From assembly GCA_043798995.1 (NCBI GenBank), contig JAZDOD010000009.1, positions 14,015-78,014 of the forward strand: a stretch of 64,000 nucleotides of DNA, given 5' to 3'. Positions within the stretch are counted from its first letter, which is position 1; every line of letters starts with the position of its first letter. The DNA comes from a bacterium. GTDB taxonomy: Bacteria; Patescibacteriota; Patescibacteriia; JAACEG01; JAGUWE01. Position numbers and translations under genes: made by a program. Under the pieces are notes generated by a model. That model worked only from the letters and a program-made list of their open reading frames with translations, searched no databases and was not told where the DNA came from. Below are positions 13,835 to 52,533 of this stretch, one piece after another.

Positions 13835-13916
13835 TGCCGATGGTGGGAGTTGAACCCACAAGCCTTGCGGCATACGGCTCTGAACCGTACGTGTTTGCCA
13901 ATTTCACCACATCGGC
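13835..13916 (-). tRNA. tRNA-Leu (anticodon CAG), class II with long variable arm
   Basis: Folded by hand from the reverse complement. Acceptor GCCGATG/CATCGGC plus discriminator A. Anticodon loop UUCAGAG. Variable stem-loop GCC-GCAA-GGC. T arm GTGGG-TTCAACT-CCCAC. Confidence 0.8.
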
Positions 13917-14018: not shown

Positions 14019-14103
14019 TGCCGGGGACAGGATTTGAACCTGCACAGAGTTGCCCCCACTGCCACCTCAAGGCAGCGTGTCTACCAGATTCCACCACCCC
14101 GGC
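14019..14103 (-). tRNA. tRNA-Leu (anticodon GAG), class II with long variable arm
   Basis: Acceptor GCCGGGG/CCCCGGC plus A. Anticodon stem-loop CTGCC-TTGAGGT-GGCAG. Long variable arm. T arm GCAGG-TTCAAAT-CCTGT. Confidence 0.8.
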
Positions 14104-32842: not shown

Positions 32843-32914
32843 GGTTTATTGACAATAGAAAAGTCAATATTCCGCCTTGCGGAATTAATGCTCTTTTTAA
32901 AAGGGAGGATCGCC

Positions 32915-33625
32915 ATGATTAGCGATAAGACCTTAAATAACGCAGAGTTAGAGTTGACGCAAAAGTTGCAAATGCATTTTCCGAGAGGAGTCATTTCTCC
33001 GGATGTGCTAAAGCAATGGAATACCTGTCAGAAAGAAGCTATTACAGCACGCCTAGTCGAAGCATTTAGCAAGGGACCGGAAATTGTTTCTTCCGCAACT
33101 GAGCATCTGCTTGAATTTCTAGGCACCATAATCATTCCAGATAATCCTGAAAAATTCGTCGTCAAGAAAAAATTCATCGTGGATACCGGCAAGAAAGCTC
33201 CGATAAAAATTTCCTATCTTGGATCGAACCTGCAAGAGTGGTTTCTTAACAAGGTCGAGGGACCAAGTGAAAAAACCGTTCTTCGCAAAGACCGATTACG
33301 GAAAGCGTCGATTGACATGCCCATTATCGCCGAACTTGGCGGCCACAACAAAGTAGCCACGACTTGGTTTGCCATCTGGCACCTAATGATCCCGAACCAG
33401 CTCGACAAGAATTTGTGGCATGTCTTCTATATGGAAGATGAAATCCGTTTCCCGGAAGACAAAACCATCGCTTTCACCAACGCGAAAAGCGAAAAAGGTG
33501 TGCTTCGCGCGGTGTACGTGTTCTGGCTCGACGGCGGCTGGGACCTGACGGCGCACTCCGTCCTGTCTCCGTACTGGTGGTCTGAGGGCCGTCGGTTCTT
33601 CTCCCGCAATTCCTCTGAAACTTAG
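32915..33625 (+). CDS. DGR target (variable) protein; C-terminal ~38 aa encoded by the variable repeat
   Basis: Start at ATG 32915 (MISDKTLNN), which has a GGGAGG SD. GC is ~47%, against a ~35% background, and codon usage is distinct (ccg/gcg/ctg/atc). The C-terminus GVLRAVYVFWLDGGWDLTAHSVLSPYWWSEGRRFFSRN is encoded by VR. No signal peptide is recognisable. Confidence 0.6.
   Translation: MISDKTLNNAELELTQKLQMHFPRGVISPDVLKQWNTCQKEAITARLVEAFSKGPEIVSSATEHLLEFLGTIIIPDNPEKFVVKKKFIVDTGKKAPIKISYLGSNLQEWFLNKVEGPSEKTVLRKDRLRKASIDMPIIAELGGHNKVATTWFAIWHLMIPNQLDKNLWHVFYMEDEIRFPEDKTIAFTNAKSEKGVLRAVYVFWLDGGWDLTAHSVLSPYWWSEGRRFFSRNSSET
33497..33609 (+). repeat. DGR variable repeat (VR)
   Basis: 113 bp homologous to 33991-34103. 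It differs at 22 positions, every one of which is an A in the TR copy. The last ~17 bp (ttcttctcccgcaa) are identical and A-poor, a candidate initiation-of-mutagenic-homing (IMH) boundary. A downstream hairpin GACCCTCT...AGAGGGTC lies at 33657-33703. Confidence 0.8.
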
Positions 33626-33990
33626 AATATATGGCTCTTTGATCCTTTAACACTCTGACCCTCTTGAATTTTTTGCAGAATCTTGCAGAAATTTGAGAGG
33701 GTCTTTTATTTTTGCTATACTATTTTTAGAATCATGCGCTACACGGCGGTTACGACTTCCGTGTTATGATTTCAGGAAATTTTTCACGAGAGTCGCGCCG
33801 GATAAGTCTTGCGCGAGAGTGTGAAAAATATTTCTTCAAAAAATTAAAATGAATTGGTGCAGGAAACCGGCGGATTTTTAGGTCCCGAATAAAATTCAGC
33901 CCCGAGAGTATTCATCCCATTAGAAATTCATAACTTCTAATGGGATTCAAGGGGCAGTGGCACAGATAGTTTTCTGCTCGAGAACGAGCC

Positions 33991-34103
33991 GGTGTGCTTC
34001 GCGCAGTAAACGTGAAATGGAACGACGACGGCTGGAACCTGAAAGCGAACTCCGTCCTGAATCCGAACAGGTGGAATGAGGGCAATCAGTTCTTCTCCCG
34101 CAA
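33991..34103 (+). repeat. DGR template repeat (TR)
   Basis: Contains 31 adenines, 22 of which are substituted in VR. Rich in AAC/AAT codons in the VR reading frame (N V K W N D D G W N L K A N S V L N P N R W N E G N Q). Followed by a hairpin CTCCTGCtagtctCGCAGGAG. Confidence 0.8.
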
Positions 34104-34107
34104 CTCA

Positions 34108-34527
34108 TTATTTTTCTCCTGCTAGTCTCGCAGGAGTTTTACTTAGTAAGCCCTTTTTCCATCCGCCAAGCATTCTTCCTATTTCTTCAAGCTTTTTGGA
34201 AAGCTCGATGTATTTTTCATTCGGAATAAGCTTGCTTTCCCAGGCGACTTGGACAAAGAATTTCAGGACATCAAGTTTTGATATAGTTTTTCCCAATAAG
34301 ATGAATTTCTGATCAGGCGGAAGGTAGGAGGCAGTAAAACTTAATTCAAGAATTTCAAGAAATGTCCAATCGATTTTTCTTCCAATCCCAAAACGCTCGG
34401 CTCTTCCCAAATTCCGCTGAAGCGCCAGCCAATATTGATAAGAATCCTTAATCTTATGAATTACAACGGGCAAGCCTCGGGGGGGGGCGTTAAAAGTCAT
34501 CTTACTATGAAAATTCAATTGAGCCAT
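34108..34527 (-). CDS. avd: DGR accessory variability determinant (Avd)-like four-helix-bundle protein (23S rRNA intervening-sequence protein family)
   Basis: LPVVIHKIKDSYQYWLALQRNLGRAERFGIGRKI and the C-terminus LIPNEKYIELSKKLEEIGRMLGGW match the Avd family pattern. It is on the strand opposite to TR and RT. Its coding sequence contains a C9 homopolymer (plus-strand G9 at 34489-34497). Confidence 0.65.
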   Translation of the reverse strand: MAQLNFHSKMTFNAPPRGLPVVIHKIKDSYQYWLALQRNLGRAERFGIGRKIDWTFLEILELSFTASYLPPDQKFILLGKTISKLDVLKFFVQVAWESKLIPNEKYIELSKKLEEIGRMLGGWKKGLLSKTPARLAGEK

Positions 34528-35020
34528 AATTTTTCCGAAATAATTCGCGTTGAAAATTTATTAGAAGCTTGGAAAGAGTTTGAAAAAGGCAAGAAAAGCA
34601 GAAAAGATGTGCAAGTTTTTTCATTGCGGTTAATGGATAATATTTTTTTGCTTCACAACGATCTTTTTCATCATACTTACAAACACGGAGAATATCAAGC
34701 TTTCAAAATCAATGATCCAAAACCCAGAGATATTCACAAAGCCACAGTTCGCGATCGGCTTCTGCATCATGCGATTTACAGAATACTTTAAAACTTCGGC
34801 TTCGGGAGTTGATTTTTTGGGCTTCATCAATTTTTATAATCATAGAATTTTGCGGACGAAAACAAAAAGGAGGATGTTTAAGAAGATTAGAATCAATAGA
34901 GAAAAATTGGCCAAAGGTCTTATCAGCAAGGAATCGTTCAATCAATTGCTGCAATCATATTATGGGATTCTCAAACATTGTCACGGTTATAAGTTAAAAT
35001 TAAAGATTGATGAATTGTAG
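34507..35020 (+). pseudogene. DGR reverse transcriptase remnant: internal deletion plus frameshift, catalytic motifs 3-7 missing
   Basis: Frame A runs 34507-34791: MKIQLSHNFSEIIRVENLLEAWKEFEKGKKSRKDVQVFSLRLMDNIFLLHNDLFHHTYKHGEYQAFKINDPKPRDIHKATVRDRLLHHAIYRIL. This is the RT N-terminus through motifs 1-2, then a stop. A different frame (34712-35020) encodes the RT C-terminus: VDFLGFINFYNHRILRTKTKRRMFKKI...SFNQLLQSYYGILKHCHGYKLK. Only ~170 codons are present in total and there is no YxDD motif. Confidence 0.6.
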
Positions 35021-35088
35021 TTTGAATCAAGATTGAGCCCTTTTTTCTTTAGACAAAATGGTTTTTTTATGGTATAATTAAGTTAAAT

Positions 35089-52016: not shown

Positions 52017-52132
52017 AATTTTAGGGTGGACCCCGTAAGAAGTCAGCCCAACGCTACTTTAATAGAAACTGAGAATTTAAAAATCAATAGGGCACTTTTT
52101 ATATAAAGATACATTTGTCTGACTTCTTACGG

Positions 52133-52533
52133 GGTGGAGATGAGGGGAGTTGCACCCCTGTCTAAAGATTCTCGTTTAAAAACTTCTACAAATTTAGTCC
52201 TATTTTTTTCTCGGCTTAAAATAAAAAATAAGACAAAAACTTTTAAGCCAGAGTCTTATTTGTGGTTCGATAAATTAGCAAAGACCGCTCTAATTTATCT
52301 AGTCTAATAATTATGACACCGAAACTACCTATTAGACATCAGTAGCCCCAGTGGGCCGTTTCAATTAAGCAACAGCCATTGCCAAAGAAGGAGTGGCAAT
52401 TGCTTGCGCAATCGCAGTCCTTACTTTGTTAACAAGTGTTTTTGCACTTATAATTTGTCAGCGGTTTAAAGAGCAACTAACAGCTCCATTTGCCGTTTTT
52501 AAAAAGAACCTCTGGCGAAGCTTAGGCATCCCC
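52133..52533 (-). ncRNA. ssrA: tmRNA (SsrA) candidate, directly downstream of smpB
   Basis: 5' end GGGGAUGCCUAAGCUUCGCCAGAGG resembles the tmRNA start GGGGcUGauUcuGgaUUCGaCgGG. 3' end AGGGG-UGCAACU-CCCCU-CAUCUCC-A-CC gives a T-arm plus acceptor strand pairing with the 5' GGGGAUG (one G-U). An in-frame tag-like ORF ends ...SLAMAVA-UAA. A 16-bp perfect inverted repeat (52029-52044 / 52120-52135) lies immediately 3'. Confidence 0.6.

Follow-up and report, generated by a model that had tools for sequence, protein, structure and literature searches.

The element of Bordetella phage BPP-1 (mtd-avd-TR-brt) is the mechanistic prototype of DGRs. For the DGRs of CPR/Patescibacteria, the order target/VR-TR-avd(reverse)-RT was named architecture B3, TR-(avd)-RT, by Wu et al. 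2018 (NAR 46:11, PMC5758913), who also discarded over half of the candidate DGRs for premature stops or truncations. In Treponema denticola, 8 of the 17 isolates listed in one study keep target genes without RT or TR, which were interpreted as core-DGR remnants (Front Microbiol 2016, PMC4891356). Inactivation is a common and already recognised fate of DGRs.

The locus described here lies on contig JAZDOD010000009.1 (GCA_043798995.1), of which a stretch of 64 kb was analysed (hereafter, the window; coordinates refer to it unless another sequence is named). The DGR layout extends across window 32849-35020 in the order target/VR (+), TR RNA module, avd (-), and reverse transcriptase (RT) (+), as listed in Table 1. 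Since the cassette is placed between rpoC upstream and ftsK and recA downstream, the element is chromosomal. Among the criteria for a DGR, the locus shows an adenine-restricted TR/VR pair, an avd adjoining TR and RT, and the B3 order together with the RNA elements of its clade; for the complete RT catalytic domain, homology is present and enzymatic integrity is absent. We consider it likely that this is a chromosomal DGR of a Patescibacteria clade whose RT was recently inactivated by a deletion of ~509 nt, so that retrohoming stopped and the VR became fixed.

Table 1. Features of the DGR cassette and RNA genes elsewhere in the 64-kb window
Feature	Position in window	Strand	Remarks
tRNA gene	13835-13916	-	Rfam, above gathering threshold
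tRNA gene	14019-14103	-	Rfam, above gathering threshold
DGR target gene	32915-33625	+	236 aa as annotated, V1892_02550; ORF also open from TTG 32849
VR	33497-33612	+	Direct repeat of TR (116 nt); final ~40 target-gene codons
Inverted repeat, 15-nt arms	33657-33703	+	87% complementary; just past the target stop codon
Structured RNA 5′ of TR	33857-33979	+	RNAalifold on 19 loci and covariance model
TR	33991-34106	+	Rich in AAC/AAT codons
Hairpin, 7-bp GC-rich stem and U tract	34116-34140	+	Directly 3′ of TR; terminator-like match
avd	34108-34527	-	Intact; 139 aa as annotated, 130 aa from the second Met at 34500
RT 5′ fragment	34507-34791	+	94 codons, then TAA; tblastn E 7e-49
Deletion junction	34788-34791	+	blastn against L001; codon-level comparison with 8 intact loci
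RT 3′ fragment	34790-35020	+	+1 frame, 76 codons to the natural stop; tblastn E 4e-24
tmRNA gene	52132-52533	-	Rfam, above gathering threshold

TR and VR were aligned over 116 nt with 80% identity, and 22 of the 23 mismatches fell at TR adenines (A>T 8, A>G 7, and A>C 7). TR has 31 adenines, and a binomial estimate for such a concentration of mismatches was about 4e-12. The VR carries the typical adenine-specific diversification signature, and its description in an earlier note on this DNA as heavily diversified agrees with these counts. The identity was within the range of clade loci with intact RTs (79-93%). The sole non-adenine change was a C>T located three bases from the end of the repeat, where a difference between IMH and IMH* is expected; since the last homing event, the interior of the repeat has gained no non-adenine difference. 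An identical GC-richer stretch, TTCTTCTCCCGCAA, closes both TR and VR, after which the two sequences diverge. The inverted repeat that follows about 45 nt after the VR is a possible terminator of the target gene or a possible DGR target-site hairpin.

The N-terminal part of the target protein is helical, and its C-terminal domain, which bears the VR, is rich in beta structure. An AlphaFold model of the protein, built on 52 sequences, was confident (pLDDT 90.4). No Pfam domain was found in any of 181 target homologues. The VR-bearing domain is probably a small C-type-lectin-like binding domain.

The TR is accompanied by structured RNA on both sides. In all clade loci examined, the ~120 nt upstream of the TR hold an element with a three-way junction fold, whose stems in the window are P1 (33857-33868/33968-33979), P2 (33872-33875/33882-33885), and P3 (33899-33907/33947-33955), with an extra hairpin (33914-33946) inserted in the P3 loop. 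Compensatory changes were observed in 19 of its 23 pairs (RNAalifold, 19 loci); paired cells amounted to 95%, versus 76.5% in shuffles and 33-50% in slid controls, and double-change cells numbered 103, versus 34 in shuffles. The corresponding covariance model (R1) detected a single copy in the window (104 bits, E 2e-18) and one copy per locus wherever enough upstream sequence was available (e.g., L001 4363-4487), including loci on which the model had not been trained. The single-stranded motifs AATAAAATTCAA, GAGAGTATTC, and GGTGGTG of this element are conserved across the clade. No Rfam family matched either the three-way-junction element or the 3′ hairpin, and a brief literature search found no description of the former.

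Equivalents of the 3′ hairpin, with 7-10 bp followed by TTTT, were present in 19 of 21 clade loci, where the stem sequences differ and the pairing is kept. In the window, this hairpin overlaps the last avd codons on the opposite strand, and it probably either terminates a separate TR transcript or serves the DGR RNA as a functional 3′ element. Because promoter-like sites lie upstream of the 5′ element in the window and a terminator-like hairpin with a U tract follows the TR, the arrangement suggests that the TR RNA of this clade is transcribed separately, as a short RNA, and not together with the RT gene. The covarying RNA that flanks the TR is probably of more general use than the RT pseudogene described below.

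The avd product (NCBI MFH0819889.1, ‘four helix bundle protein’) matched the Pfam family bAvd (PF22296) with an E-value of 7e-14 and 52.6 bits, against a cut-off of 40, and a promoter-like site for avd was located at 34698-34670 (-), inside the retained RT 5′ part. The position of avd on the strand opposite to TR and RT had been linked to a possible rearrangement in the earlier note; however, the order target-TR-avd(-)-RT(+) was found in every relative examined, with about 430-570 nt from VR to TR (start to start), and is the published architecture B3. L001, L003, and L004 shared this order and spacing, and the TR-to-RT spacing was alike in 18 of 24 genome loci. A rearrangement that flipped avd was rejected: avd(-)/RT(+) is the clade norm, and therefore no rearrangement is needed.

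A tblastn comparison of the clade RTs with the window yielded two matches in different frames, namely an N-terminal piece at 34507-34788 (E 7e-49; 83% identity to P0003) and a C-terminal piece in the +1 frame at 34784-35029 (E 4e-24 to P0001), and no match beyond these two fragments over the whole 64 kb. The RT had been called an internally deleted and frameshifted remnant from the letters alone, and these matches uphold that description; the stop (34789-34791) and the second open frame (34712-35020) had likewise been located correctly. The RT start had been placed at a TTG (34435), and this is corrected here to the ATG at 34507, which gives the N-terminus common to all homologues. The 5′ fragment, identical in sequence to NCBI MFH0819890.1 (‘hypothetical protein V1892_02560’), contains the N-terminal extension and motifs 1-2 and ends in ...PRDIHKATVRDRLLHHAIYRIL. 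The 3′ fragment contains KT-SASGVDFLG (motif 7) and the thumb, and has no start of its own save a fortuitous ATG at 34712. Neither fragment has further stops or frameshifts, and both are 70-87% identical to the RTs of Moraniibacteriota, Falkowbacteria, and Parcubacteria.

Intact RTs of the clade are 340-350 aa long; thousands of them were found with a 340-aa composite query, constituting the overwhelming majority of relatives and originating from Moraniibacteriota, Falkowbacteria, Parcubacteria, and other Patescibacteria. In the reference RT P0248 (342 aa), the RVT_1 domain corresponds to residues 73-276. Alignment to intact RTs indicated that the window keeps the equivalents of P0248 residues 1-94 and ~265-340, and that ~170 residues (codons ~95-264), roughly 83% of the RVT_1 domain, have been lost. 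The missing segment holds SYSCRxxKGTHKA, CDIRKFFANIDH, GLPLGNLTSQ, YIRYADDF, and LKLHPDK, which represent motifs 3-6 including the catalytic aspartates and YADD; CDIRKFF is among the absent sequences. The absence of motifs 3-7 asserted in the earlier note accordingly holds for motifs 3-6, whereas motif 7 (SGVDFLG) is retained. The RT HMM alignment proposed there as a check gave no match to Pfam RVT_1 for either fragment alone, because too little of the domain remains in each, and it was the alignment to intact RTs that showed motif 7 to be present. On its sequence, the RT is a catalytically dead remnant of a Patescibacteria-clade DGR RT. Programmed frameshifting as a rescue of the RT was rejected because the catalytic motifs are absent from the DNA. 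In annotation, the two ORFs would be better labelled as one RT pseudogene than as ‘hypothetical protein’.

The deletion was delimited by blastn against L001, the nearest relative with the catalytic core (77% nucleotide identity), in which L001 4917-5284 corresponded to window 34425-34790 and L001 5803-5878 to window 34800-34875. The net gap relative to L001 was 509 nt at codon resolution. Since 509 is 3n+2 and not a multiple of 3, a single deletion explains both the motif loss and the frameshift, and one out-of-frame gap suffices where a deletion and a frameshift had previously been listed as two lesions. The TAA at 34789-34791 was created at the junction: the Tyr codon after ...YRIL contributed the TA, and the Lys codon of ...IKT supplied the final A from its first position. 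The breakpoints are ambiguous within a 3-nt TTA microhomology. The deletion was probably mediated by microhomology, or it may have arisen in two steps, with a 495-nt in-frame deletion at the AAAACTT words of FDKTF and IKT(L/S) and a subsequent loss of 14 nt. In 8 intact relatives, the break regions lie 504-510 nt apart and have exact words of only 6-11 nt in common, and repeats of this size are the kind at which slippage deletions occur.

Contigs of two sister strains covered parts of the cassette. L006 (Logan contig), 95.6% identical, covers window 33576-34722 and ends before the junction. L005 (Logan SRR22388163), 90% identical, is collinear up to window 34285 and then jumps to about 34825. 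At the join (L005 1585-1601), window 34269-34285 is fused to about 34825-34841 at an imperfect 17-nt repeat, CATCAAnTTTTnATA, with one copy within avd and another in the RT 3′ part. This deletion, different from and larger than that of the window, has cost L005 the 5′ half of avd and almost the entire RT.

The source is a metagenome-assembled genome, and its junction is covered by one assembly, given that L006 ends at 34722 and the L005 deletion spans the junction. With strain-level variation present at the locus, the deletion might be an assembly artefact or a minority haplotype of a population that mostly has an intact RT. We regard this as unlikely, because repeats between the break regions of intact relatives do not exceed 11 nt, which is much shorter than the k-mers of assemblers; the shortness of the words in common makes repeat collapse by the assembler unlikely, and such a collapse was rejected. 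The junction is also clean, with 3-nt microhomology; the sister strain L005 has a deletion of its own; and similar deletions were found in many relatives, such as the P0025 cluster with 4 members (ENA and JGI) and P0008 on 2 contigs. Neither the junction 25-mer nor a lineage-specific 30-mer from the TR 3′ end had a match in JGI metagenomes, and no same-lineage signatures were found among the retrieved proteins.

The sister strains also provide a relative date for the loss. The TRs of the window, L005, and L006 are 96-97% identical (each comparison gave 4 differences in 120 positions), and their VRs differ from each other at TR-adenine positions; therefore, mutagenic homing went on after the strains had split. 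Such cross-strain VR differences demonstrate past activity only. For the RT, pN/pS was 0.14 over 72 N-terminal codons (compared with L006) and 0.21 over 39 C-terminal codons (compared with L005), and for avd it was 0.04 (window compared with L006), all three figures resting on few substitutions. These values indicate purifying selection on the retained RT pieces, with an RT that would have been functional for most of the divergence time of the strains. The low RT pN/pS, the stop-free fragments, and the strain VR differences together argue for a recent window deletion, and so does the fact that no other cassette component has decayed.

Two further features of the sister strains were observed. 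Between the window (34108-34722) and L006, pS was 0.32 in the RT 5′ part, about four times the 0.078 of the adjacent avd, and this difference suggests recombination within the cassette. In L005, all 8 adenine-site differences between the VR (813-932) and the TR (1307-1426) were A>G (N>D and K>R); this spectrum, with no A>C or A>T, is unusual for DGR mutagenesis. One TR-specific C>T of L005 was not copied into its VR.

The frequency of RT lesions in the clade was estimated by a scan of GTDB representative genomes, which provided 24 clade loci in 22 MAGs, picked by peptide patterns that were mostly N-terminal. The RT was frameshifted or truncated in about 5 of the 24 loci, including a C-terminal truncation (L009), frameshifts near the C-terminus (L015), before YADD (L025), and at residue ~130 (L028), and the absence of the N-terminal half (L030). 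An A-biased TR/VR pair was kept at the lesioned loci L015, L025, and L009, as well as at L001, which is the L009 locus in another assembly, and at L004, a locus found outside the genome scan whose in-frame RT deletion is almost identical in extent to that of the window. Two clade RT loci each were present in the MAGs CAYQVD01 (L017 and L018) and JAPLXF01 (L027 and L028). In the latter, one RT appears intact and its partner has a frameshift at residue ~130, so that complementation in trans might be tested naturally in this MAG. Other irregularities in the clade were a P0003 RT (296 aa) lacking the last ~45 thumb residues and an open frame of 424 codons in L016 (367-1635), where a clade RT has a ~200-nt insertion between motif 4 and YADD. 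The L001-L003 contigs, which stem from different assemblies, end 110-125 nt past the stop of the P0003 RT (L001 5891-6002), and this common end hints at a repeat or a strain-variable junction.

In-frame internal RT deletions were seen in P0001, P0005, P0006, P0008, P0016, P0025, P0033, P0039, P0040, P0047, P0058, and P0083, with junctions at short repeated peptides or words (e.g., KFFAS|GVDFLG and FFDKT|LASGVDFLG); these were obtained with a 170-aa remnant query for which all matches were ≤298 aa, probably through a length limit tied to the query, a list enriched for short proteins. The idea that most relatives carry deletions was rejected, as the 340-aa composite query revealed abundant intact 340-350-aa RTs. 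Several of the relatives are in-frame fusions of the N- and C-terminal parts without the catalytic core, among them P0008 (171 aa), with a gap almost identical to that of the window, and the P0025 cluster, found in four assemblies; moreover, both window fragments are still open reading frames. Truncated RT products could on these grounds have been selected for a non-polymerase role, for example as a regulator binding Avd or the TR RNA, with the mini-RTs as the functional versions. This is extremely improbable in our estimation: the deletion end points vary and sit at short repeats, as expected of random slippage, the 3′ part in the window is out of frame and without a proper start, and the fusions come from a hit list with no protein above 298 aa, whereas intact RTs dominate overwhelmingly among relatives.

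With the local RT dead, another DGR of this clade, located elsewhere in the genome, might still supply the RT, and possibly also the Avd, for diversification of the TR-VR pair in trans. Because the TR seems to have a transcript to itself, the RT would always act on a separate RNA, and because the single-stranded motifs of the 5′ element are conserved across the clade, a paralogous RT could plausibly recognise the TR RNA. The avd, the TR, and both RNA elements are intact, although this is equally expected from a recent deletion. Two RT loci per genome occurred in 2 of the 22 clade MAGs, and several DGRs are present in about 10% of DGR-bearing complete genomes (Wu et al. 2018, PMC5758913), but most genomes have a single DGR. 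Searches of the 64-kb window with tblastn and the covariance model found no second RT, TR copy, or TR-RNA module, and the loss of half of avd in L005 argues weakly against selection for local helper functions. We therefore judge diversification in trans to be very unlikely; if true, the locus would represent a natural orphan TR-VR pair served by a remote RT. Of the two readings offered in the earlier note, a decaying DGR diversified in the past or diversification in trans, the former is favoured by the deletion that L005 acquired on its own, the RT lesions among clade loci, and the survey of Wu et al. 2018.

Under the favoured reading of a recently inactivated DGR, the steps of the intact element can be reconstructed from established DGR biology. 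The TR RNA would have been transcribed, apparently as a short RNA of its own that begins with a structured domain and ends with a hairpin, and RT and Avd would have copied it to cDNA with misincorporation opposite adenines. The cDNA would then have replaced the VR, which forms the 3′ end of the target gene, rewriting the surface of the binding domain. The ~509-nt deletion took RT codons ~95-264, shifted the frame, and made the stop at the junction. As such an RT cannot polymerise, mutagenic retrohoming would have stopped and the current VR variant would have been fixed; most likely, an already diversified target gene is now frozen. Taken alone, the locus is of little weight, since inactivated DGRs are frequent and are routinely discarded by surveys. 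Its modest value is that of a dated snapshot, in which one locus in three close strains shows different VRs and two independent RT/avd deletions, and it could exemplify the speed of DGR loss and receptor fixation in small CPR genomes.

Compared with the B3 DGRs of CPR/Patescibacteria (Wu et al. 2018, PMC5758913), the window element has the same order and orientation, and its target, like most CPR targets in that study, is without a Pfam domain. Unlike the B3 set, its RT lacks codons ~95-264 and is frameshifted, and by the criteria of that study the element would be discarded as non-functional. With the BPP-1 element it shares the adenine-specific TR-to-VR differences, an Avd four-helix bundle, structured RNA flanking the TR, and a C-terminal VR in a binding domain that is probably C-type-lectin-like. 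In contrast to the phage-borne BPP-1 element, it is chromosomal, between rpoC and ftsK, and its RT is dead; its avd is antisense and located between TR and RT; and its TR RNA is apparently transcribed separately, with a three-way junction on the 5′ side and a hairpin on the 3′ side. The comparison with the T. denticola isolates (PMC4891356) concerns the fate of the element: both cases involve strain-level gain and loss of DGR function, but whereas RT and TR are wholly absent in those isolates, the loss in the window is an early one, in which TR, avd, and the two ends of the RT remain.
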